Assembly: GCF_000372725.1 (NCBI RefSeq)
Contig: NW_005201349.1
Location: 322,723 to 386,722, forward strand
From: Emiliania huxleyi CCMP1516
Lineage: Eukaryota
Reading direction: 5' to 3'
Length of the DNA: 64,000 nucleotides
The notes under the pieces are model-generated. The model did not search any database and was not told the DNA's origin. It saw nothing but the letters and a program-made list of their open reading frames with translations. Positions 3,862 through 63,855 of the stretch are shown one piece after another. The translations under genes and the position numbers were made by a program. How positions within the stretch are numbered: the first letter of the stretch is position 1; each line of letters opens with the position of its first letter.

Positions 3862-5004
3862 ATGCCGGTGCACGTCAGCCTCGTCGTGCCGCAGGGCACG
3901 ACCGCCGGGCAGCAGATCAGCTTCGTGCACACCGACGGGCGGAACGTCTCGCTCATCCTCCCCGCTGGCGTCGTCCCCGGGCAGATGCTGCACGTCAACG
4001 TTCCGGACGACGCGGCGGCGCCAACGCCTCAGGCGCAGCAGCAGCAGCAGCAGCAGGCCGCGGGCTCGTCGCAGCCGCCTCCCTCGAAGCGGCAGAAGTC
4101 GAAGAAGGAGCTGGCGGCGGATGACGGCATGTCGCTCTGGCCGCTCTCGGAGAGGCGCGACCCGGCGGTGTGGCGCGCGCTCTCGGGCCTGAGTGCGACG
4201 CACGGCGCATGGTTGGGGCGCGGGCGCGATGCGTCGCAGGGCACGTACGACTCGCTGCGGCTCGCTTGCGCGTGGCGCATAGAGAATCCGCGCCGGAGCG
4301 CGCGCGTCGAGGGCGGCACGCGCTGCATGTCGGACGAGCTCGACTGCCTGAAGCGCAAGGGAGGTGTCGCGCGCGAGGTGTGGCGCGACATGATGACCTC
4401 GAGCACGGCGGCGGCGCTCGAGGCGCAGGGCAAGCTGCAGCTGCGCACCGAGCTGAACGAGGTGCTGCTGCTGCACGGCATCCCACGGAGCTCGCTGCTC
4501 ACCGTACTCGCTAACGGCCTCAACGAGCGCTTCAGCGGCACGCACGCGGGCGCCGCGTTTGGGAATGGCGCATACCTAGCGGAGGATCTTGGCAAGGCGG
4601 ACCAGTACGTCGACGCCGACGCCAACTATGACCCGGCGAGCGACCTTCACCAGCGGCTCTACGGCCGGTCGTACCGCCACCCGGGCACCGCCTTGCACTA
4701 TGCGCTCGTGTGCCGCGTCGCGCTCGGCCACCCGATCCGGACCAAGGACGCGGGAGCGCTGGCGAGGTCTTGCGACGATCCGAACGAGCGCGTCTTCCCC
4801 GTGAACGTGCGCGAGCTTGCCCCCGTGCCCAACTTGGCGCCGCCGATGCACTACCACTCGCTCATCGCGGAGAAGGGGCCGGGCCACGACCGGTACCGCG
4901 AGTTTGTCATCTTCCACGCGAGCGACTACATCTGCCCAGAGTACCTGATCGCGTATCATCGCGAGAATTCGTCTGCGCAGGCCTCTAGGGGCCCGAGCCG
5001 CTAG
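3862..5004 (+). CDS. PARP catalytic-domain (ADP-ribosyltransferase) protein, intronless
   Basis: LLHG, FGNGAYLAE..KADQY, LVCRVALG, REFVIF...ICPEYLIAY, giving the H-Y-E triad pattern of PARP-like domains; ATG at 3862. Confidence 0.85.
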   Translation: MPVHVSLVVPQGTTAGQQISFVHTDGRNVSLILPAGVVPGQMLHVNVPDDAAAPTPQAQQQQQQQAAGSSQPPPSKRQKSKKELAADDGMSLWPLSERRDPAVWRALSGLSATHGAWLGRGRDASQGTYDSLRLACAWRIENPRRSARVEGGTRCMSDELDCLKRKGGVAREVWRDMMTSSTAAALEAQGKLQLRTELNEVLLLHGIPRSSLLTVLANGLNERFSGTHAGAAFGNGAYLAEDLGKADQYVDADANYDPASDLHQRLYGRSYRHPGTALHYALVCRVALGHPIRTKDAGALARSCDDPNERVFPVNVRELAPVPNLAPPMHYHSLIAEKGPGHDRYREFVIFHASDYICPEYLIAYHRENSSAQASRGPSR

Positions 5005-14922: not shown

Positions 14923-17900
14923 ATGGCACTTCCGCACCTCGTTGTGGTGGCGCTCGCGAGCTGCACGCTGTGGGTCCCGCGCAGCCCGCCTCCTCCTCTC
15001 TGCCCTCTAGCCCGTCCCGCTCTCGCGCGAGCGTCGCCCGGCTACAGTCCGAGAGCCATAGCAGCGAAGGGGCGTGCCGATGCTCATCGAGACGCGAGCT
15101 GACGCCGTGTTTTGCTGCCCATAGGTGCGGCAAAATCTCAGCCTCGCCGCGTTAGTCCTCACTCGCAGAGAGATGAGATACGTGCGCAGTTTTCTGCAGT
15201 AACCAGTAATCAGTCGCGGTAGTCGGTAGTTCCGCAGTAGGCCGCAGCAACACACTGCAGGAGACCAGTAATAATGCGCGGTAGTACTCTGCACAGTCTC
15301 CAGTAACCAGTAATAGTGCGCAGTAGTCCGTAGTTCCGCAGTTCTGCAGTACCCAGTAATGCGCAGGGTCTGCAGTAACCAGTAATAGTGTCCAGTCCCC
15401 AGTAATAGTACTCTGCACAGTCTCCAGTCCCCATTAATGATAGTAGTGCTCTGCACAGTCTCCAGTAATAATAACAGTGGTGCTCTGCACAGTAGTGCTC
15501 TGCACAGTCTCCAGTAATTATTAATAGTGCTGCTGTGCACAGTAGTGCTCTGCACAGTCTCCAGTAATAATAATAGTGGTGCTCTGCACAGTAGCGCTCT
15601 GCACAGTCTCCAGTAATTAATAATAGTGGTGCTCTGCACAGTCTCCAGTAATGATAGTAGTGCTCTGCACAGTCTCCAGTAACCAGTAGTAATGCGGTAG
15701 TACTCTGCAGTAGTCTGCAGTCTCCAGCCGAGATTGCCCGAGATGCACCCGTCGTAGGTACGAGTGAATTCGATCAACATCATGTCCGAGAAACAGACGA
15801 CAGTGAAGGTCGGCACCGTGCCGGCCAAAGACGGCAGCATTGAGGTCGTCATCTCCGCGCCGAAGTCGCCATCGCTCCTCGGAGCTACGGCGGTGTGCGT
15901 GCATGTCGCAGATCCTCCAACCGCCTCCCATGTCATGCTCCCCTTCTCCCTCATCCACAGGCGTGCGGCGCCAAGGGCGTCCCATTCTCGGGCGGCACCG
16001 CTGCGGCGGTGCTCGGCGAGGGCGCCCTCAAGAAGGACCTGGCCGAGGCAAAGGCGTCGGCCGCGGACACGGTCGACTCGGACGCCGAGACCCACACCAC
16101 TGCACCCGCCCCTTCCCCAATCCATAGGACGCCCTCGCCGCGAACGCGGCCGCGGTCGACACCGGCGCCGATGACGCCGTCTCGCCCACCCCCCCTTCGC
16201 TCTCGGACTACACGAGCGTCGCCAAGAACGCTAGCGTTGACTCGGCCGCGGCGGCGGCGGAGCCGGAGCTGGCCGCGGACACAGTCGACTCGGACGCGGC
16301 CATCTCCGTGTTTGCCGCCCACGAGCCGAGCGCGAGCGCCGTTTTCTGGGTCAAGCTCGCGCGCCCGACCAACCCACCGACGGCCCACACCGGCGTCACC
16401 GAAGACGACCCCGCTCTCGAGCCGGTCATCAAGAACGACCCGGCTGCCAAGCCGGTCGATGGCAGCGGCGAGCCACCGCCGTCCATCAAGGAGTTTCCTG
16501 CGGAGACGCCCGCCCCGGTGGTGAGCTTTAGTAGTCCGCAGCACTCCGCAGTACTTCACAGAGCACAGTAGTCAGCAGTGCTGCAGTAACTAGTAATATG
16601 CAGTAGTGATCCGCAATAGTCTGCAGATCTGCAGTATTCAGTAACGCGCAGCCATACGCCGCAGTAGTGGGTAGGGTGGAGATTAGCCGGGATTGCCCGA
16701 GATTTTTGGCTAGTCTCTCTCGCCTTCTGGCTGTCACAGGCGTCGCTGGCGGGCCAGTCCAAGGGCGAGTCCGCTTCGCTCGAGGACGGCATCCAGTCCA
16801 AGGACGACCCGGCTCTCGAGCCGGTCATCAAGAACGACCCGGCTGCCAAGCCGGTCGATGGCAGCGGCGAGCGACCGCCGTCCATCAAGGAGTTTCCTGC
16901 GGAGACGCCCGCCCCGGCGGTGAGCGCCACGGACGCGGCGGTCGCGGAGCCAGCGCCCAAATATTGACGCCGCCACTTATTGCGCGTGCACAGGGCATCA
17001 CCGACTGGACGACCCCGTCGAACCCACGCCGCAACAACGGGCGCAAGGGCGAGGTCAAGTACACGAAGGTCTCCAACAAGTACGATCCGCTCGACGACGT
17101 CGAGACGAACGCCGCTGCGGAGATCGACAAGGACGAGGACGAGAAGGGTAAGAAGAAGGGCGCGGAGTTGGGCAAGCAGTCCTCGGTGTGTGTGTGTGTG
17201 TTGTGTGTGTGCGCGCCCTCTCTTTCTTACAGTGTAGACCCACCTTTGCTTGACCACACGCCGCGCCACAGTGCGAGTCCGTCTCGCCCGAGCCGACCCC
17301 GACGCCCTTCGGCTTCGGCTTCGGCTTCCGCTCCGGCTTTGGCTTCGGCAAGCTCTGCTCGTCCAAGCTGCTGTGCATCGTCTTCTCAATCGTGGTGCTC
17401 GGTCTGGGCTGCTCGGCCTTTGCCCTCTCTCCGTACGGCTCCGAGCTCCTCGACTCGGTGCCCGACGCGGCCGCGATCCCGGTGAGTTTGAAGCTACCCA
17501 AGCCCGGGTTGTGGTAGGTAGGTCGATCCTCATCAAACTTATTGTTTCGTACTAGGTCTTCGACTCCTCGAACATCACTCCGAAAGCGCGCGAGCCCATC
17601 TTCGCCCCGTCTCTGACGCCGTGCGAGGCCGGCTTCGTCCCGACGTGCGAGCAAGCGAAAGGATTTAGCCTCTGCGGCTTGGCCAACGCAGCGTGCGACA
17701 AGGCGTGCGTCGACGAAGTGAAGAAGACTTGCCCTGTGACGTGCGGCCTCTCGGCGGAGGCGACGTCCGGGCACCTGGACCCGCCTTCCGACTACGGCAA
17801 ACGCTTGCCGTCAGCCGCCGCGGAGGCCATTTGCAGCACTTGCGCAGACCGTCCCGATCTGCCATGCTGCCACAACCACCCGCACGAGGACGGCCGCCGC

Positions 17901-17960
17901 CACCTGTCAGAGTCGTGCACCGACGCAATCATCTCCGCAACGCCGACCATCCGCAACCCA
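14923..17960 (+). CDS. Multi-exon acidic/Pro-rich membrane protein with an internal exon duplication and a Cys-rich (ShK-like) C-terminal part; 3' end cut by the telomere-capped insert; exon joining uncertain
   Basis: Signal-like MALPHLVVVALASC; duplicated DDPALEPVIKNDPAAKPVDGSG.PPSIKEFPAETPAP (16405-16520 and 16803-16920); TM-like LLCIVFSIVVLGLG; CDKACVDEVKKTCPVTCG. Confidence 0.45.
15190..15725. repeat. Degenerate satellite (gtgctctgcacagtctccagtaat units), likely intronic
   Basis: Repeated units seen directly; related gcagta-rich tract at 16530-16668. Confidence 0.9.
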
Positions 17961-18002
17961 GGCGCAGCGCACGCAGCCCTGCCCCGCCTCCCCGCCCCAC
18001 AT

Positions 18003-18054
18003 CCCCCAAACCCCAAAACCCCCAAACCCCAAACCCCCAAACCCCCAAAACCCC
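18003..18054 (+). repeat. C4A4-type telomeric repeat (degenerate: C4-5A3-4), left cap of the insert
   Basis: cccccaaaccccaaaacccccaaaccccaaacccccaaacccccaaaacccc. Confidence 0.85.
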
Positions 18055-18097
18055 AGTCTCAGGCTATTATTAAATAATAAATAAAATATAGTTACTT

Positions 18098-19233
18098 ATG
18101 TTCAAGAAACTTGTTTTGACTCTCTTGGCAGGCATCTCTGCTGATGAAATTTTTGAGCAGCCAGAAGCAACTGGCAAGTGCCACGCTATCGCCTTCAGCT
18201 CCGGAGATGAGGATGCCGCCTACCAGGCTGGTGTTTTGAAGGGCATCACAACCAACCCAAAGCTCTCCCCATCTGACTACGCTTACGATTCAGTCTCCGG
18301 TGTTTCGGGTGGAGCACTCAATGCAGTTCTTCTTTCATCCTTCGAGAAAGGGCAGGAGCAACAAGCTGCTGAAAGAATGGAAGAGTTCTGGAAGGCTGCC
18401 ACTCATTCCCAACTCTACAAGAACTGGTTCGGAGGAATCGCTAAAGGTCTCTTCTTTGAGGGTGGACTCTACAACTCTGCCCCCATGGAAGACTTCCTGA
18501 AGTCTCAATTCAAAGGAGTTCAAATGCACCGAAACCTTGACATTGGAATTGTTGACGTAATCAACGGTGACTACAAGGACTTCTCAGACTTGAACATCAC
18601 CCATGGCGACAACCTGATCGATGCTCTTTATGCCTCCATGTCCTTCGCTGGCTTCTTCCCTCCTGCTGAGGTTCTCGGCTCAGCCTACTACTTTGATGGG
18701 TCTGCTGTGTGGGACATTGACATTTTCTCAGCTATCAACCGATGCTCTGACAAGGGTTTCAAGAATGAAGACATCGTTGTTGATGTGGTGTTGACTTCAT
18801 CTGCCAACCCCAAGCAAGTTGAAGCTGAAGACTACCAGTCCATCGGCATGCTCTTCAGATACCTTGAAATTTCGTCGTTCTACAACTCCATGGATCGCCT
18901 TCTCAGAGCTCAGTTCGCATACAAAGGTGTCAACTTCAGATACGTCATTTCCCCATCAGAAGCAGCATGTACCCACTCAACTTAAAGGAGAAGGACATCG
19001 ACAAGGCCTTTTCCATGGGAGTCAGTGATGCAAACAAGGCCATCTCAGACGGGAGCAAGACCACCTGGAACAACCTTGTGCACTACTACTCCATGAAAAA
19101 GAGTGGTGACGCCAGAATCCTGAAGCACACTTATGGTTCCTTCCGCGATGCCAAAGAAAACAACGAGTTCGAGGAGTACGACATCATGAAGGACGATTTC
19201 ATGAGAAAGTACACTTACAAGCTTCTCCAGTGA
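18098..19233 (+). pseudogene. Patatin-like phospholipase of ciliate-type composition, frameshifted near 18960 (pseudogene or sequence error)
   Basis: Signal peptide MFKKLVLTLLAGISA; AAYQAG; nucleophile elbow GVSGG (GxSxG); ASMSFAGFFP; catalytic FDGS; continuation MYPLN...KLLQ-TGA in another frame; low GC, no introns. Confidence 0.85.
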
Positions 19234-19299
19234 GACTCAAACTGGAGTTGACCTACTACATACATTGAAATCAAATAAATGAATTGAATCCACATATAC

Positions 19300-19327
19300 G
19301 GGGTTTTGGGGTTTTGGGGTTTTGGGG
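19300..19327 (-). repeat. Perfect (G4T4)3G4 telomeric repeat, right cap of the insert
   Basis: ggggttttggggttttggggttttgggg (28 nt). Confidence 0.95.
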
Positions 19328-20931
19328 ATCTCATCAGCAACGACGTGCGTGACCTGGGCTTGCAGGTGGGCTCGCGTGAGCGGTACCACGCTGCCGAGGT
19401 CGGCCACGCTCTCGTTGCCCAAGCGGCCCAGAAATGCCGCCAACGCAGGCACCATCTTAAAATGCTTGAGCGCGCACGCGCTGCGGCAGCAGGGTCGCTT
19501 CTCTGGGGCCTCTTCGGCCAGTACGGCCGGGACGAGGAGCATGGCCAGCACATGGAGCAGCAGGTTCACGACGCGTCGCTCGAACGACATCGCCGCCCCC
19601 GGGGGGTACAGTTAGGTTGTCCTCCGGCGGGCGGGCGGCGCCCCCGGTCCTCTGGCGGCCGGGGTTGGGTTGGAGGGCATTTTTCTCTTTTTCAGGTATT
19701 TCCAGCTCGCTCCAGATTTATTTTTTGAACGAACCTCTTCGTATACCAGTGCTCCTCCTCTCACAACTGAATAAGGGGTGCACAGATTCGGTGTTTCCAC
19801 AATCAAACCGTCTCCGCCGCGGCCAGCTCGTTGCGCCGCTTCTTCCCGACGAGCCGCTCAGGGTCGGCGAAGCGCATGCCAATCACCTGCTTGATCTCGA
19901 AGCAGTATGTCGGCACGACCGCGTCGTCTCCTCCGCCGTCGGCGAGGCGCGCCACGCGGGCCGCCTTCTGGCATTTGTAGCGGGTACACATGGTGCGGCG
20001 CGCATACTTGAGCACACCGTGGGGTTGGTGCAGTTGGCGCACGTGCCTGTGGGATAGGGCGCCATAGCGACGCGCGCACTTGGAGCACTTGGAGTGCAGT
20101 CATTAACCTCACATCCAGGGCCGGGGCGCGCTCCGGGTATTTTTCGGGTATACCTGAGAATTCTCGGGTATACCCGGGTTTTACCCGGCCGGCCACCTGG
20201 GTCGGTCCGAGGGTGTTCTAGGAATGATCAGAATGGCGAGGGCCAGAACGTGTTACATGTACTAGTCAGAACGGACTCCAGTTGCCGTTCCTGGCAACTC
20301 AGCGGGTTGCGCGCACGAAACGGCGGGTGAGCGTTTGAGGTCAGGCCGGAAGGAAGGCCGTGAGGTCCTCGCAAGGCGTCGGGAGCCGGTGCAAAGCGCA
20401 GGCCTCCGCCGCCGCAAAGCCGAGCTCCTTGCCGTACGGTGCGTCATGCCAGTTATATCCAACCGAGCTGTCCCCCCCTCGGACACGTCCCCCCCCTTTC
20501 CTCTCGACTGGTTCCCTCTTTTACATACATAAAATAAGGGGATTGCTAGCCACAACCGGCTTCCAGCCGATTTACCATACGCATACCGGGTCCGGCGAAG
20601 TGGCTAGCGTCGGGTGTGGGACCTCAGGGGACAGAGCCAAGTAGGGTATAAAGTATCCGTACGCCACAAATGGCTGGCTATACTGGGGTACATTAGGAAG
20701 TCAGCGCCATACTGCCATACCTGACAAGGACTCACACTGTGGTAGGGCCAGGTATCCGTACTGCTGTAGCAGTGCCCAGTGCGCCCGGTACCCGGATACC
20801 GGCGTCCGGCCTCCTCGTACTGCAATACTGCGAGAGAGGCGGCACAATACTGCCATACCTCCCACATACAAGTGTCGAAGTATGGCAAAGTATGCATACT
20901 TCAATACCACAGACTTCGCCGCTTGTACGCG

Positions 20932-32881: not shown

Positions 32882-32981
32882 NNNNNNNNNNNNNNNNNNN
32901 NNNNNNNNNNNNNNNNNNNNNNNNNNNNNNNNNNNNNNNNNNNNNNNNNNNNNNNNNNNNNNNNNNNNNNNNNNNNNNNNN

Positions 32982-45036: not shown

Positions 45037-47196
45037 TCACGCGCGGACCACCTTCTTGACGTCATATGCGTCAGCGAAGAAGTCGCGATCGGTCGGGTGG
45101 AACGAGCCCACCAGCTGGCGCCCCGCGTCATGCGTCACATATTCGATGAAGCGCGGGACGCTCGGGGTGAAAGTCTTCGTCGCCCGCATATGAGCAAGCT
45201 CATACGTTCGATCTGCATCGCCGGCAGAAGCATGCCAGTTCAACCCGAAAATATCACGCTGCAGCGCCTCGAGCCACAGATCCATCGAAACCGAGCGGGC
45301 CTCGCCGCCAGCGTCGAGGATAACACTAAGATCATTGCGCGACGCGACGCACGGGACCGGCTCGTTACGCTCGATCGCGCCGTCGATGAAGATGCACACC
45401 GTGCCGTAAGGGTGATATCCGTACTTGACCTTGGCCGTGTAGCCGGAGTAATCCGAGACATGCGGGTCGGAGATGGCCGAGAGGGCAATGCTCGCTCGCA
45501 TGCTGCGGTGGTCGTTCCAATTGTAACGGCACTTGTCCATCGGATGCACCCTCACCACCTCGGGCTGGTCATGCTCACCATCTCTCCTGTTCATATTGAA
45601 GGCAGAGCGGCTATCAGTCAGGCGCTCAAGCAGCAGCAGCTTTGCGACGCCATGCACGTCGCCAATGTTGCGGTCGAAGAGGTCGAGAGGCACACGCGAA
45701 GAGTCGAAGCCGGGTACGCACACGGCGAAGCCCCGCGCGCTGTACTTGAATAGGCGCGACTCGTAAGTAAGCGACTGGCGCGATTCGTCAGCGACGTTCA
45801 CCATGCCGTTGATGGCACGGCGAGCGCGCGAAGAGGCCCAGACTCGCTCGCCGTCATAAGCGACACAGCAAGCGTCGACATCGAAGCCAGCGAGCACCTC
45901 GGCTGGGGACTGGTAAATGCGTAGCACAACCTGTATGACCCGCGGCATCCTGTGATTGGTAAGGCGATCCTGGATGAACGTCACAGCAAGCTTTGTGCGC
46001 ACGACAGTGGTGTCTCCGCCCACGGCTCGGAGGTGATCGTAGAGATCCTGAATCCGCTGCGTCGCAGCCGCCTCGCTCAGGCCAATCAAGAAGATGTCGA
46101 TGTCGCTGTCATTGAAATTCATACCCTGCAGGTATTTAGAGCGTTGTCTGCGCAGCACATCTGCAGCAGGTGTGTCGCCTGCGTGCGAGAACAATAGCGA
46201 GGCGAGCACGGAGCCGCCGGCAACGACCATGTTGGACATGTCGAAGCCATCCAGCCGCTGCGACGTCATATGCGAGAACGTCTCACGAAACGTGGCAAGG
46301 TCGCTACAAACGGAGCGGGCGACAGCGCGTCGCTCGTCGAGCTTCGCCCACTGCCGCATAGACAGCAGCGCAACGGTGCCTTCATCTGGCCGATAACCAG
46401 GTTGAGGGTAGAGGAGGGTGCCATGCTTGAGGCGGTGCTCGCCGTGCAGCATCATGTGGCCTGAGAGCTGCTGCCAAGACTCGTCGTGGGCTGGGCGAAA
46501 GCTGTCGAGGTTTGCAAAGACGTCGACGAGGTCCAGGTGCGGTGCGAGGAGCCTCGGGTGCTTGGGTTCCTGGGCGAAGAGGCGGCGCAGCTCCGTCTCG
46601 CGCTCCCGCATGGCCACGTTGAGGGCGCCGAGCTCGCGCTCGAAGCGGCCGCGGCCAAAGATCTCGAGCAAGGCCGTGAACTGGTAGAAGTCTGCCTCGG
46701 CGAGCAGCTCGCGCCGGGCGGCCTCCGTCTCAGGCAGCATAATCTCGCCCGTGCGAAGGAAGTTGAGAATGTGGTGGAAATTGCGGCCGTCGCGGTCGAT
46801 GAACGTATAGCCATCCTCGTCGGTCGCGATCTGGTGCCTTCCAGAGAACATCGTGGCTAGCATGGACTCGCGTGCGCACAGCGTGGTGCGAGAGGTCGTG
46901 AAGCGGTGGCCGCCGATGTCTAGCTTTACGCGCTCGCCGAGTGAACCTGCTTGCTGCTCCATCATCGCAATCTCGTCTTGAAGCGCTTGCGCCTGCTCCT
47001 CGAGCGACTCCCGTTCGCTGGAAACCTCGCTCTTCGCCTCCGCATTTGCGACTTGCAGCCCCGAAAGGAGCGTCTCGATCTGCTGCCGTGCGTGATCAAT
47101 GCTTTCGAGCAGCGAGGCGACTTTCTCCGTCGCGACCACCCGCCGCGCTCGCTTCATCGCGATGGCGCCACCACTCTCGCCCGCGCGCTCGCTCAT
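45037..47196 (-). CDS. KCTD-type BTB/POZ domain fused to a pol-beta-like nucleotidyltransferase-fold domain, intronless
   Basis: VKLDIGGHRFTTSRTTL...SMLATMFSG...FIDRDGRNFHHILNFLR...EADFYQ (KCTD T1-type BTB); VVAGGSV, DSDIDIF, IQVVLRIY.SPAEVLAGFDVDACCVAYDG, RLFKYSARGF. Confidence 0.85.
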   Translation of the reverse strand: MSERAGESGGAIAMKRARRVVATEKVASLLESIDHARQQIETLLSGLQVANAEAKSEVSSERESLEEQAQALQDEIAMMEQQAGSLGERVKLDIGGHRFTTSRTTLCARESMLATMFSGRHQIATDEDGYTFIDRDGRNFHHILNFLRTGEIMLPETEAARRELLAEADFYQFTALLEIFGRGRFERELGALNVAMRERETELRRLFAQEPKHPRLLAPHLDLVDVFANLDSFRPAHDESWQQLSGHMMLHGEHRLKHGTLLYPQPGYRPDEGTVALLSMRQWAKLDERRAVARSVCSDLATFRETFSHMTSQRLDGFDMSNMVVAGGSVLASLLFSHAGDTPAADVLRRQRSKYLQGMNFNDSDIDIFLIGLSEAAATQRIQDLYDHLRAVGGDTTVVRTKLAVTFIQDRLTNHRMPRVIQVVLRIYQSPAEVLAGFDVDACCVAYDGERVWASSRARRAINGMVNVADESRQSLTYESRLFKYSARGFAVCVPGFDSSRVPLDLFDRNIGDVHGVAKLLLLERLTDSRSAFNMNRRDGEHDQPEVVRVHPMDKCRYNWNDHRSMRASIALSAISDPHVSDYSGYTAKVKYGYHPYGTVCIFIDGAIERNEPVPCVASRNDLSVILDAGGEARSVSMDLWLEALQRDIFGLNWHASAGDADRTYELAHMRATKTFTPSVPRFIEYVTHDAGRQLVGSFHPTDRDFFADAYDVKKVVRA

Positions 47197-54839: not shown

Positions 54840-56237
54840 TCACGCCTCGATCTTCTTGGGCAGCAGCTGGTTCGACAGGTCCTCTCCGTGGCCTAGGCAG
54901 CCGTCCTCGCCCTTGCCCCAGCTCCAGACGGCACCACCGGCGGCGAGGGCGAGGCCGTGGCTGCTTCCAGCCGACACAGCGACGACGCGCTGGCCAGCAA
55001 AGGCCTCGACCTGCTTCGGTAGCGGCTGGCTCTGCTCGTCGCCGTGGCCAAGCTGGCCCCAGGCTCCACCGCCCCAGCTCCAGACAGCGCCGTTGGCGGT
55101 GAGGGCGAAGCTGTGCCGGCCTCCAGCCGAGACAGCGACGGCACGCTGGTCAGCCAAGGCCTCGACCTTCTTTGGCAGCAGCTGGTCCTGCCGGTCGCCG
55201 TGGCCCAGCCGGCCGTGGCCTCCATCGCCCCAGCTCCAGACGGTGCCGTCGGCGGTGAGGGCGATGCTGTGGAAGTATCCAGCCGACACAGCGATGACGC
55301 GCTGGCCAGCCAAAGCCTCGACCTTCTTCGGCAGCAGCTGGCTCTGCGTGTCGCCGTGGCCCAGCTGGCCAAAGTGTCCCTGGCCCCAGCTCCAGACGCT
55401 GCCGTCGGCGGTGATGGCGACGCTGTGCGCGGTTCCAGCCGACACGGCGACGACGCGATGGCCAGCAAAGGCCTCGACCTTCTTGGGCTGCCACTGCTGC
55501 TGCTCGTCGCCGTGGCCCAACCGGCCAAAGTATCCATAGCCCCAGCTCCAGAGAGCGCCGTCGGCGGCGAGGGCGAGGCTGTGTGTGTTCCCCGCCGAAA
55601 CAGCGACGACGCGCTGGCCAGCAAAGGCCTCGATCTTCTTGGGCAGCAGCTGGTGCTGCTCGTCGCCATGGCCCAGCATGCCAAAGCCTCCACGGCCCCA
55701 GCTCCAGACGGTGCCGTCGGCGGTGCGGACGAGGCTGTGCCCGCCTCCAGCCGACACGCTCACGACACGCTCACCGCCCAGCGGGGAAGGGAGGCGGGTC
55801 GGCGTGTTGAGCCGCGTCACGCCCTCGCCGTGCCCGAGCAGCCCTGGGAAGTAGGACGGAGCCGAGCCGCACGACGAGAGCCGCCCCTCGCCGTCGATGA
55901 AGAGGCTGTGCTGAAGGCCTGCCGCCGCCCTCGCCGGCGGGTTGGACTCACACAGCAGCGCAGAACAGCACAGCCACCGCACGGCGCAGCCCTCGTCCTC
56001 TGGCTGCGCCGGCAGCTCGAAGCCGCGCTCTCGCGCCCACAAGCGGATGCCCTCCAGCGCAAGCGAGGCGTGGAAGAGCAGCGAGACGGCCGCGACGCGA
56101 GCGATGTCGGCGGGGCTGTCGAAGCGGGAGATGACGCGCGCGAGAAGCTCAGGGGGCAGGTCGGTGAGGGGGCAGTGTGCGGCGGCGGCGGCGGCGGAGG
56201 CGAGGCGGCGCGAGCGGCGGCGCGGCGGGGTGGACAT
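54840..56237 (-). CDS. F-box-like + RCC1-repeat (UVR8/HERC-like) protein, intronless
   Basis: LTDLPPELLARVISRF followed by about 6 tandem RCC1 repeats of the form VSAG..HSLAL.ADG.VWSWG.G..G.LGHGD. Confidence 0.92.
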   Translation of the reverse strand: MSTPPRRRSRRLASAAAAAAHCPLTDLPPELLARVISRFDSPADIARVAAVSLLFHASLALEGIRLWARERGFELPAQPEDEGCAVRWLCCSALLCESNPPARAAAGLQHSLFIDGEGRLSSCGSAPSYFPGLLGHGEGVTRLNTPTRLPSPLGGERVVSVSAGGGHSLVRTADGTVWSWGRGGFGMLGHGDEQHQLLPKKIEAFAGQRVVAVSAGNTHSLALAADGALWSWGYGYFGRLGHGDEQQQWQPKKVEAFAGHRVVAVSAGTAHSVAITADGSVWSWGQGHFGQLGHGDTQSQLLPKKVEALAGQRVIAVSAGYFHSIALTADGTVWSWGDGGHGRLGHGDRQDQLLPKKVEALADQRAVAVSAGGRHSFALTANGAVWSWGGGAWGQLGHGDEQSQPLPKQVEAFAGQRVVAVSAGSSHGLALAAGGAVWSWGKGEDGCLGHGEDLSNQLLPKKIEA

Positions 56238-56756
56238 CGCGACGAAAAGAATTTTCTGCGGTTCTTTTCCACAAATGCTAGCACCTTTGAACGTGTGGGC
56301 GGCAGCTGTCTGTTTACAGGCGCTGGCCGCCCGCGCGCGCGCCGGACCGGCTCCGGCACGTCCGGCGCTGGGCGGCGCGCGTCCACACTGCGCGTCGCGC
56401 AAAAGGCGAGCGCTCGCCGCCGCTACGGCGGCGGCGGCGGCCGGCGGCCGACGGCCGACGGCCGACGGCCGACGGCAGACGGCAGACGGCATACGGCCTA
56501 GGGCTCGGCTGGGCGCGCACGCGCACGCGCGGGCGTCGCGCGCCACGCGTCGCTCCGCGAGGGCGCGCGCCAACCGCGATTCGAACCGGGGCCAAAAGGC
56601 GCCTGGAGCGACCGCGGTCCGGTCGCGCCACCGCGGCTGCGGGGCTGATAGAGCAGGCCGGCTGCGGCTCCTGATGTACCTCCGCTTTTGGGTGGCGGTC
56701 GCTACGGCGCTCGCGGCGCGCTCGTGGCGTTCAGGGCGGCTCGCACACGCACACGC

Positions 56757-60031: not shown

Positions 60032-61306
60032 ATGCCATCGACGAATGGAGCCTTTGCGTTTGCTCTTGTGGTCCTGATGCTCGGCCTCGTTTCGGTTGAC
60101 AACGTGCCGACCAACGCACAGCAAGAGTGTCTCTCTGGCGTTGGCGAGAATGACAGTACCCTTCTTGCGGTGCTTGGCGTCCTCTCGCACGCACCACAGC
60201 AGCGACTTCGCGATGCGTGGCGGCGCCACATTTTGCCGGTCGCTTCGCCCGACATTGCCGTCCGCTTTGTCATGCGCGGCTTCGGTGTTCCCACTCATGT
60301 GAACCTCGAGGCGAAGACGCACGGCGATGTTATTTTGCTCCGAGCGAATTCGTCCTTGCCGCGAGGGACGGGACCGTTGATCTCTCTAAGGCTCTGGTAT
60401 TCGTGCGCGTTGTCTGCCTTTCCGCAGGCGGCGTACGTTGGCAAGGCGGACGACGATACCTTTGTGCACTTGCCGAGCATTTCTCGCCAGCTCCAAGCTC
60501 TCCCACCCGACACGCCAACGTACTGGGGCAACTTTGAGTGCTATCACTGGAACATGACGCGGCAGACACCGACTTGGTTCTGCTTCGACTTTCCGCGCGG
60601 CACTGGCAGCTGTCGGATGAACCAGCAGGTGCTAGGACCCTTTGCCTTTGCAAAGGGCGCCTTGAACTTTCTAAGCCAGAGTCTTGCTCGGCACCTGGTC
60701 CGCAGTAAACTAGCAGCCAACAGTGCATCCGCAGCCGTTCGCACCTTTGCCGAATATGAGCAGATTACGCGCGGGCGCGAGTGCGGCCACTGCCTGCCTT
60801 TCGAAGATGTGTGGACAGGGGCTGCGATCGCGCGCCTGACAGAGCTGCCAAGCTTGCGCCTGGTCTCGTCGCCTCCCACCAGTGCTATCGTCCATTTGAA
60901 GGACAAGGCCAGCGCAAAAGAGTTTGAAGCCTGGTCGCACGTCGCATCAAGGAGGAGCCACTGCGATGCAGCCACCATCAACACCTCTTCCATGTGCACT
61001 ATCCACCCCGCACGCACCTGTGGCGGGGCTGAGCAGCAATTTTGCAGAGGCACCCCTCAGCATCCCTTGCGTGGCTCTTGCCCGGGCGACGAGCTGTACG
61101 AGGCTGAGCCCTGCAAAGATAACAAGCACACCAACGGGTGGTGCTTGCCCAAAAGGAGGCTGTGCACAGCCAATGAACGCGATTTCGTAACGCAACGCTG
61201 CCGCGCAACTTGCGGGAGGTGCACCCCGCATGTGACATGGATCGATGGGCTTCAGCGATGGGTTCAGGCCAAATCTGCCCAGGCTGCGTTCAATGCTTCA
61301 CTTTAG
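60032..61306 (+). CDS. GT31 galactosyltransferase-like protein with a C-terminal ShKT domain, intronless
   Basis: N-terminal TM; RDAWR..., EAKTHGDVILL, YVGKADDDTFV (DDD), FAKGALNFLS, FEDVWTG; CKD....C......C...FVTQRCRATCGRC (ShKT). Confidence 0.85.
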   Translation: MPSTNGAFAFALVVLMLGLVSVDNVPTNAQQECLSGVGENDSTLLAVLGVLSHAPQQRLRDAWRRHILPVASPDIAVRFVMRGFGVPTHVNLEAKTHGDVILLRANSSLPRGTGPLISLRLWYSCALSAFPQAAYVGKADDDTFVHLPSISRQLQALPPDTPTYWGNFECYHWNMTRQTPTWFCFDFPRGTGSCRMNQQVLGPFAFAKGALNFLSQSLARHLVRSKLAANSASAAVRTFAEYEQITRGRECGHCLPFEDVWTGAAIARLTELPSLRLVSSPPTSAIVHLKDKASAKEFEAWSHVASRRSHCDAATINTSSMCTIHPARTCGGAEQQFCRGTPQHPLRGSCPGDELYEAEPCKDNKHTNGWCLPKRRLCTANERDFVTQRCRATCGRCTPHVTWIDGLQRWVQAKSAQAAFNASL

Positions 61307-62493: not shown

Positions 62494-63855
62494 TCACAGC
62501 TTGAGGCGACGCACGCTCACGATGGACACGGACACCTTGCGGCCGTAGCTCAAGGCGCACGGATACACGGGCCCAGTGATGCCCTTTGCCTTGTGTGGCA
62601 CCTCCACGCCGTCGATGAAGAAGGTCACCTGCCCCGCCGCCATGTCCACGAGCATGCGCGCCTCCGCGCCAATGGGGAACTCGTAGCCACGCGGTGTCAA
62701 CCCCTCCTTGTGGTTCTCGCTGTACACCATCCTATGGAAGCGACGCAGCCACCAGACATTAGGCATGCCATTGGAGTTGCTCTCAAGGCGGTCGCAATTG
62801 TCTCTGACGATGCCGAAGCCCGAAACTGCAGCCGAGAGATCGGCGCCGTCCTCGGTCAGTTTGAAGACGACCTCGTAGGTGCCCGAAGCGATCAGCGTGT
62901 CGACGCGCACGAGACCCTTCTGCGTGGTCATCGTCTCGCCAGCGGCCGAGACGTTCGCTGCATCGTGGCCCTCGAGCACCCACTTGGGGTTGAGCGGCCC
63001 GCCGGTTCGGGGCGTGGTGCGCGGCGTGGCGGCGCCAAAGGACTTTTCCTTCATCGCCTGGGCGAGCACCTTGAACGCGGCGGCCGTGTTCATGAGCGGC
63101 TCGGTCTCCACGTGCTCGGTGAGAAAGTCGGCGCTCATCGTCGAGAAGCGAACGTGTTCGAGCAGCGCGGCGACCGTGCTCTCCTCCCGCACCGCCGGCG
63201 CCTGCGCGCGCAGCCAGCGGACCAGCGCGGTGAAGACGGCGGCCTCGTCGGCCTCGACCTCGTCACTGGCGAGCAGCGCAGAGAGCATCTCGTGGCTCAG
63301 CTGCACAAAGTCGTCGGTCGCCGCGACGTCCGCAAAGTGCTTGAGCGTGTGCTGCCGGGCCGTGGCCGCCAGCTCGGGCAGGCTGGCGCGGTCCGCAAAG
63401 ATCCACGTGCTCAGCGCGTTTGCCACGGAGATGCGCTCCTTGAGCGCCGCCGTGAGCGCCTCGGCCAGCGGTGCCACCTGCAGACGCGACGCCGCCTCGA
63501 GCAGAGGCACCAGCAGCTCCTCGGGAACGTTGCAGCTGCCCTCGTAGATGAAGGAAAGCACGCCTTCGAAGACCGACGCCTTCATGTCCTTGAGCTGGTG
63601 CTCGGCGCTGTCGGCGAAGCGGTCGCCGGGCAGCAGGGCGCGGAAGTAGTCCGACGCTGCCGCGAGCTTGAGCTTGTGCACGGCAAACGCGGAGCCGTCG
63701 ACCGTCACCGTGAGATCGCACAGCTCGCCCGCGCGCCACATCGCAGCCTCCGCCTGGAGTTGCGGATTGTCCACGTCGTGCGACGTTTTGAGAGCGACCA
63801 ATGGTGCCGACGAGGCAGCGGCCGCGTCGGCGCGAGCGCGCTTGCGTGGTGGCAT
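62494..63855 (-). CDS. BTB-BACK protein with a C-terminal SPRY/B30.2-like domain, intronless
   Basis: LCDLTVTVDGSAFAVHKLKLAAASDYFRALL (BTB); FVQLS....LLASDEV..DEAAVFTALVRWL...LLEHVRF (BACK); MLVDMAAGQVTFFIDG...GPVYPC (SPRY-like). Confidence 0.9.
   Translation of the reverse strand: MPPRKRARADAAAASSAPLVALKTSHDVDNPQLQAEAAMWRAGELCDLTVTVDGSAFAVHKLKLAAASDYFRALLPGDRFADSAEHQLKDMKASVFEGVLSFIYEGSCNVPEELLVPLLEAASRLQVAPLAEALTAALKERISVANALSTWIFADRASLPELAATARQHTLKHFADVAATDDFVQLSHEMLSALLASDEVEADEAAVFTALVRWLRAQAPAVREESTVAALLEHVRFSTMSADFLTEHVETEPLMNTAAAFKVLAQAMKEKSFGAATPRTTPRTGGPLNPKWVLEGHDAANVSAAGETMTTQKGLVRVDTLIASGTYEVVFKLTEDGADLSAAVSGFGIVRDNCDRLESNSNGMPNVWWLRRFHRMVYSENHKEGLTPRGYEFPIGAEARMLVDMAAGQVTFFIDGVEVPHKAKGITGPVYPCALSYGRKVSVSIVSVRRLKL

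Follow-up and report, generated by a model that had tools for sequence, protein, structure and literature searches.

Single-gene molecules capped by inward-facing C4A4/G4T4 telomeres are the macronuclear architecture of spirotrich ciliates (Oxytricha, Stylonychia, Euplotes and the oligotrichs). Extrachromosomal DNA can be captured at double-strand breaks, as in NUMT- and NUPT-like insertions, and can then be exonized into a chimeric gene. Among protists, gene transfers of the 'you are what you eat' type are known, and transfer between eukaryotes is usually argued from trees alone, concerns ancient events and is disputed as contamination. Strombidium chromosomes are described as C4A4-capped, with 46-51% GC and with transcription starting ~48 nt away from the telomere (PMC10901763); for Emiliania huxleyi, a TTAGGG telomere and about 66% GC are reported (bioRxiv 2024.05.26.595999). 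Here we analysed 64 kb of E. huxleyi CCMP1516 contig NW_005201349.1 (hereafter the window, to which all positions refer). Very probably, a whole spirotrich, likely oligotrich, nanochromosome has been integrated there and is transcribed within a chimeric gene, whose last exon it forms and whose product is predicted to be a membrane-anchored patatin lipase.

The telomere-bounded insert (18003-19327, 1325 nt) lies inside a host gene. Its two telomeric tracts are the only ones in the 64-kb window, and a telomere-like tract arose in none of 100 dinucleotide-matched simulations. In L001, an independent metagenome contig, the left telomere is a perfect (C4A4)5C4 of 44 nt; in the right one, L001 has a single T>G change and sequencing run X9 another. 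The GC content of the insert core is 0.464 versus 0.656 and 0.609 in the 2-kb flanks (overall 46% for the insert and 64% for the host), which makes it the lowest-GC 1.24-kb stretch within the window, and CpG is depleted in the core (0.53 versus 1.08 in the flanks). An earlier note, made from the letters of the window, had described a low-GC segment with a C4A4-like start, a 43-nt AT-rich leader, a 66-nt trailer and a (G4T4)3G4 end, joined to its flanks without an N-gap. All of these were recovered on re-measurement, and the closest N is at 32882. The same note had spoken of one intronless patatin gene: the patatin assignment (PF01734) stood, whereas the single stand-alone gene did not, since the coding region falls into two frames and serves a spliced chimera as its last exon.

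The AT found on both sides of the insert is a possible 2-bp target-site duplication; together with the C-rich left flank it is consistent with such a duplication or with microhomology. Past 19341 (position 3263 of L001), a second rearrangement or an insertion in one haplotype has taken place, and neither continuation has a homologue. An element at 20076-20126, 750 nt downstream of the insert, is very high-copy, with a summed depth of 30,687 in X1 and 328,745 in X9 (single copy, 15 and 48), and is probably a short repeat or a MITE end.

Table 1. Positions of the insert, the chimeric gene and adjoining features in the window
Feature	Position	Strand	Remarks
Left ciliate telomere	18003-18054	+	C-rich tract, 52 nt, units C4-5A3-4, degenerate in window
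Ciliate leader/subtelomere	18055-18097	+	43 nt, 81% AT, identical in L001
Ciliate trailer	19234-19299	+	66 nt, 68% AT
Right ciliate telomere	19300-19327	+	Perfect (G4T4)3G4, 28 nt
AT dinucleotide	18001-18002, again 19328-19329	.	Beside left/right telomere; chance 1 in 16
Host bases common to window and L001	19328-19341	.	14 nt; beyond 19341 haplotypes unrelated
Host 5' exons (three)	15782-16520	+	ATG 15782; Ala/Pro/Asp-rich low-complexity N-terminus; inner boundaries approximate
Host exon duplicating part of preceding exon in tandem	16740-16919	+	Spliced in X7; not in four environmental chimeras
Host exon, Lys/Asp-rich	16994-17185	+	97% to P0171 200-263
Host exon, predicted signal-anchor	17272-17481	+	Holds the sole long hydrophobic segment of the chimera: P0171 296-315, Kyte-Doolittle 2.56
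Host exon, Cys-rich module	17556-17961	+	Weak ShK-like lead only
New intron	17962-18131	+	170 nt, GC-AG, phase 1/1
Ciliate patatin, frame 1	18098-18985	+	295 aa in window allele
Ciliate patatin, C-terminal 88 codons	18967-19233	+	Out of frame in window, TGA end; 98% to P0171 746-835

Sequencing runs were matched by the words of 17600-19730. Among the 19 runs listed, nine contain 0.67-0.85 of these words; all nine are of one organism, date from 2012-2025 and belong to four named studies and two entries without a study name, and the window itself may derive from one of these runs. The shares were 0.13-0.28 in the metatranscriptomes X10-X15 and 0.00 in X18-X19; X16-X17 are raw-read runs. Contig-level alignment to the window covered X1 and X9 (DNA-type) and X7 and X8 (RNA-type). 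A 1369-nt contig of X1 spans 18054-19422 and bridges the right junction by 95 host bases, and a 1326-nt contig of X9 (18054-19370) bridges it by 43. That is, the contigs continue into host DNA and the insert is not a free linear molecule. The insert contigs had a depth of 15.5 in X1 (7-18 in neighbouring listed contigs) and of 48.3 in X9 (38-76). Both of these Logan contigs end at the left telomere repeat, and the left junction is found in DNA in L001 and the window alone. L001 belongs to the three loci to which the 107 pattern matches of a metagenome scan reduced. It is collinear with 16069-19341 at 96% identity, spans both junctions and has identical breakpoints. It differs from the window by substitutions at 10 of 1379 host exon bases, 1 of 518 intron bases and 12 of 1123 patatin bases, so that divergence is similar in the insert (1.07%) and the host exons (0.73%). 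Contamination could not give an insert that diverged in step with its flanks. Six neighbouring ORFs of the window were looked up in the protein collection; three are present there, and two of these are in clusters, at 90% or above, with named E. huxleyi proteins. It is as good as certain that the insertion is real in the E. huxleyi lineage, in cultured as well as wild samples.

We also looked for the empty site. A protein search with the host exons (lengths 262-2000) gave seven matches, none of which continued into either right flank, and the right-flank peptide of L001 had no match among six candidates. The right-flank frame of the window had a repetitive, unrelated protein as its sole match, which was judged to be chance and rejected. 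With the insert and one AT taken out, the host frame may be open. The window genes at 3862-5004, 60032-61306 and 62494-63855 have homologues on a pair of long public scaffolds, of 411 kb and 618 kb, which suggests an allelic scaffold that could carry the insertion site in its other haplotype.

For the donor, we compared the best 120 of 203 patatin homologues. The 117 of these with a size given were all on contigs of 0.67-2.2 kb, only two of the 120 bore a taxon name (Strombidium inclinatum and Stylonychia lemnae), and none was named as haptophyte. P0001, known as a protein only, is the nearest homologue among the matches listed (95% identical). L002 is a free contig that starts with a 20-nt C4A4 telomere followed by an AT-rich leader, and a further relative, L003, has one in-frame TAG read as Gln. 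The insert gene has a TGA stop and no in-frame TAA or TAG, and none of its 11-12 Gln codons is TAA or TAG. A tree of 96 sequences was computed by a quick search, and the careful tree was restricted to 39 of those, picked by hand. In the latter, the algal alleles formed one clade (99/91) with P0001 as sister (99/98), joined by L002 (100/98); a clade of the insert with Strombidium inclinatum was weakly supported (91/63) and Stylonychia fell outside. Telomeres, gene structure and trees taken together, the insert would almost certainly derive from a spirotrich macronuclear nanochromosome. The donor was probably a marine oligotrich, and this affinity points to a grazer.

Two other origins have to be weighed against this. 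The earlier note had left open whether reads from a contaminating ciliate had ended up in the algal assembly or a whole chromosome had been captured, and the irregular left telomere of the window could indeed contain read errors. Against contamination, however, the same breakpoints recur in an environmental haplotype that is 96% identical, the X1 and X9 contigs bridge the junction at the depth of the flanks, two studies and four environmental proteins show the host-insert splice joint, and the insert alleles are diverged about as much as the host exons. We consider contamination or misassembly extremely improbable. Capture, in turn, was borne out by L001 across both junctions, by X1 and X9 across the right one and by the patatin phylogeny, in which the gene groups with ciliate-type and not with haptophyte sequences. 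The check by junctions and coverage thus held for the right junction (X1, X9 and L001), and for the left in L001 only, the X1 and X9 contigs breaking at the repeat. Under the other origin, the gene would be native to haptophytes and its telomere-like repeats fortuitous, or else a ciliate mRNA would have been retrotransposed. This would fit an insert without an intron, as L002 seems to be interrupted by one around codon 293. But P0001 also reads through this position, and the absence of the intron is therefore a trait of the donor. Moreover, the simulations yielded no such tract, the two telomeres face inward with an exact C4A4 phase in L001, an mRNA carries no telomeres, and a haptophyte-named match was lacking among the best 120 of 203. 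A native or mRNA-derived gene is hardly credible next to a spirotrich nanochromosome.

The gene matches PF01734 with an E value of 1.2e-22 (81.5 and 74.7 bits versus a gathering cut-off of 27.7). The window allele retains the Ser70 nucleophile (18305-18307) and the catalytic Asp (18695-18697), and the Ser-Asp dyad (G-V-S-G-G and F-D-G-S) is present in all aligned algal alleles. For the intact allele, a patatin fold was predicted (pLDDT 86.6) which matches CapV, CapE and potato patatin in Foldseek (E 3e-12 to 7e-10, TM about 0.52-0.56); a sequence search of the PDB at E 0.01 gave no match. An invariant Cys28/Cys215 pair and a start that looks signal-like by eye suggest that the ciliate enzyme is secreted. 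In the nucleophile column, 17 of 79 ciliate-type homologues have a residue other than Ser (Ala in nine, Gln in five, Gly in two and a different one in the last), which hints that spirotrichs have catalytically dead paralogues.

We have little doubt that the insert supplies the final exon to a chimeric gene and that one telomere is spliced out. The new intron begins with 41 host bases and continues through the left telomere and the leader to the ciliate ATG and first 11 codons; its removal takes away most of the ciliate signal peptide and joins the host exons in frame to the patatin. The joint 17958->18129 (five letters ambiguous) was found at a depth of 31.3 in X7 and 620.9 in X8, versus zero in X1 and X9. 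X7 and X8, which come from two studies, were taken as RNA by guess, and this is supported by GT-AG joints at host introns, such as the GT..AG joint of intron 16521-16739 in X7. The X7 contig ends at 19294 inside the trailer, a weak hint of the 3' end of the transcript. GC donors occur in about 60% of E. huxleyi introns, and GC-AG is given as the commonest splice type (PMC4028052).

Searching proteins with the host exons led to P0159 (826 aa), which carries the same host-patatin fusion. Its cluster of 11 members comprises four intron-free fusions of 826-840 aa on contigs of 2.6-3.0 kb (P0159, P0168, P0171 and P0172), five stand-alone frames of 379 aa (contigs of 1.3-7.9 kb) and two fragments. 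The chimera maps exon-wise to 15782-19224 of the window; with tblastn, residues 1-198 of P0171 matched exons 15782-15898 and 16128-16517 at 97-98%. In the chimera, the hydrophobic stretch (296-315) is followed by the Cys-rich module and then by the patatin, and the fusion is predicted to tether the patatin lipase on the lumenal or outer membrane face. Pfam has no match for the Cys-rich module, and its leads in the ESM Atlas were all below 0.9 (ShK-like, 0.79). The host exon beside the insert has a paralogue that is an E. huxleyi protein. In addition, the module is multi-copy and is fused elsewhere to pentapeptide-repeat, amidohydrolase-like and ETX/MTX2-CEL-III-like domains and to unknowns (P0160-P0165). 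It is possibly an exon-shuffling platform, and its locus family may be prone to recruiting new last exons.

The surroundings of the gene show further features. One exon with its donor site is tandemly duplicated (16404-16526 and 16803-16925), and degenerate repeat arrays rich in CAGT/AGTA lie upstream of the chimeric gene (15387-15720) and within it (16540-16670). By eye and by cluster names, neighbouring ORFs on the minus strand appear to encode a BTB/KCTD-domain protein (45037-47196), a BTB-BACK protein (62494-63855), an RCC1-repeat protein (54840-56492) and ribosomal protein L26 (1706-2881).

The alleles differ in their integrity. In the window, the patatin is frameshifted by a 10-nt deletion after 18959, which X1 and X7 share. 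The X9 and X8 alleles have kept the 10 nt and carry a 1-nt deletion at 18658 and a 27-nt deletion at 18833, respectively. A recoded stop was rejected as the cause of the split frame: table 6 does not join the frames, which are separated by a frameshift. Common to the window lineage are an extra Tyr (near 18686), L237P and G266R, the latter two at columns conserved in 88/90 and 89/90 homologues. Judged by these lesions, this lineage is decaying. The wild lineage (L001 and ten cluster members) has an open frame, both catalytic residues and a replaced 3' tip. It carries D207V and R269K at columns invariant in 90/90 homologues and, further, S258L, K246T, I248V, E241Q and E96V; P0159 and P0168 are without 10 residues. 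At the 3' tip, L001 3133-3180 corresponds to 19223-19257, where the last codons, the stop and part of the trailer have been replaced by ~50 bases that include a short repeat of nearby sequence, and the protein end differs by two residues.

All 12 patatin differences between the window and L001 are nonsynonymous (p 0.058 under neutrality), and the synonymous share is 0/12 in the patatin versus 5/10 in the host exons (p 0.0096). Eight of the 12 fall within 187 nt (post hoc p 1.5e-4). With no synonymous change among the 12, the comparison of window and L001 gave no signal of purifying selection after transfer. The excess of nonsynonymous change would fit relaxed drift or adaptive change, which are indistinguishable here.

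From these data, a route can be proposed. Free ciliate macronuclear DNA would have entered the alga, most likely by phagocytosis of ciliate debris; ingestion of beads by E. huxleyi is reported (PMC11117637). The linear molecule, which is present whole, would then have been end-joined into a double-strand break. Since both telomeres, the leader and the trailer were kept, the donor molecule was DNA and not mRNA, and the common breakpoints and the single clade of alleles indicate a single event. Host transcription extends into the insert and, as the RNA-type joints indicate, a GC donor in the host sequence, 41 nt ahead of the telomere, is spliced to an AG that lies among the signal-peptide codons, so that telomere, leader and ATG are removed and the frames fused. 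The standard host code reads the gene through, as it has no TAA/TAG glutamine codons, and the host signal-anchor is predicted to replace the ciliate signal peptide. The alleles have since diverged, with decay in the window lineage and an open frame with changed residues in the wild one.

Both the route and the fate of the gene have competing explanations. Instead of direct uptake and end-joining, a vector might have delivered the DNA, be it a giant virus (EhV, for example) or a transposon that had captured the nanochromosome beforehand. This would accord with the multi-copy upstream host exons (summed depth up to 397 versus 15 in X1), with a Cys-rich module whose fusions to diverse domains resemble an exon-shuffling element, and with haplotypes that diverge 14 nt beyond the right telomere. 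However, the telomeres pass into the flanks without any stretch that is neither ciliate nor host, there are no terminal repeats except the telomeres, and the flanks have neither a Pfam match nor a real homologue. The insert does not look like a transposable element either: its one ORF is the patatin, with no transposase, and in X1 and X9 it stands on a single contig whose depth is that of one copy. We therefore regard a vector as rather improbable. The insert could, on the other hand, be a neutral passenger, the chimera being a by-product of permissive GC-AG splicing that decays everywhere and the wild frame being merely young. Three different lesions among the four cultured alleles and the window, substitutions at near-invariant columns in both lineages, and differences that are compatible with neutrality and give no purifying signal agree with this explanation. 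In addition, broken wild alleles are invisible to protein searches, by which the intact ones were found and are thus over-represented. Yet all ten patatin-bearing wild cluster members are in frame as far as sequenced, the two deletions in this cluster are in frame, the catalytic Ser and Asp persist in every aligned allele, and the nonsynonymous differences are in excess and clustered. A passenger seems to us a little short of an even bet, and the chances that the wild haplotype or some other allele encodes a working enzyme would be about even.

In the literature searched, which included few subscription papers, we found no earlier description of a ciliate nanochromosome in the chromosome of another eukaryote or of a ciliate-derived gene in E. 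huxleyi. The word 'ciliate' is absent from the main text of the coccolithophore genome papers checked, whose supplementary transfer tables could list the gene. Telomere-to-telomere preservation and activation by a telomere in an intron appear undescribed. The telomeres can be read like a receipt that identifies the donor group, proves that the route was by DNA (macronuclear, somatic) and marks the exact breakpoints, and an internal C4A4...G4T4 pair is a simple motif by which such events can be counted in any genome. The foreign gene is caught during activation, for which one GC-AG intron sufficed, with no promoter to be gained and a host anchor acquired. Since living alleles range from intact to broken, a model bloom-forming alga offers the chance to follow how a transferred gene arises, is selected and is lost. 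Transfer probably ran from grazer to prey, with the suggested filter that the recipient can read only ciliate genes without TAA/TAG glutamine codons. It is a speculative and on balance doubtful extension that nanochromosomes are ready-made, telomere-tagged cassettes which marine algae capture whole, that one was domesticated in E. huxleyi, during the history of this species, as a functional anchored lipase with positive selection of the wild haplotype, and that internal C4A4...G4T4 pairs in algal genomes would disclose more transfers from predator to prey.

Compared with known systems, the protein shares with PF01734 patatins (potato 1oxw/4pkb, CapV/CapE of CBASS, PlpD) the fold, the G-x-S-x-G Ser and the D-G-x Asp. 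It differs in its oxyanion loop, which is S-S-G-D as in the ciliate family and not Gly-rich, in an identity of 12-20%, and in the fusion of the algal protein to a host anchor and a Cys-rich module. Like the nanochromosomes of Strombidium, Halteria and Oxytricha as described in PMC10901763, the insert has inward C4A4/G4T4 ends, a single gene, a length of 1.3 kb, AT-rich subtelomeres of about 40-70 nt and a TGA stop, and its 46% GC is that of Strombidium. Unlike free spirotrich nanochromosomes, it sits inside an algal chromosome, and its telomeres (44-52 and 28 nt) are mutating, one of them within an intron. As in NUMT/NUPT-type capture, a whole linear fragment without vector sequence was inserted and new splice sites bring it into a host transcript; here, however, the DNA is a nuclear chromosome of another supergroup, and a GC-AG intron removes telomere and start. 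Finally, as in other eukaryote-to-eukaryote transfers among protists, a foreign eukaryotic gene, fixed or segregating, is expressed in an unrelated lineage, but in contrast to the usual cases the transfer happened recently, as the 95% identity to a free relative shows, and the donor chromosome is itself physically preserved from one end to the other.
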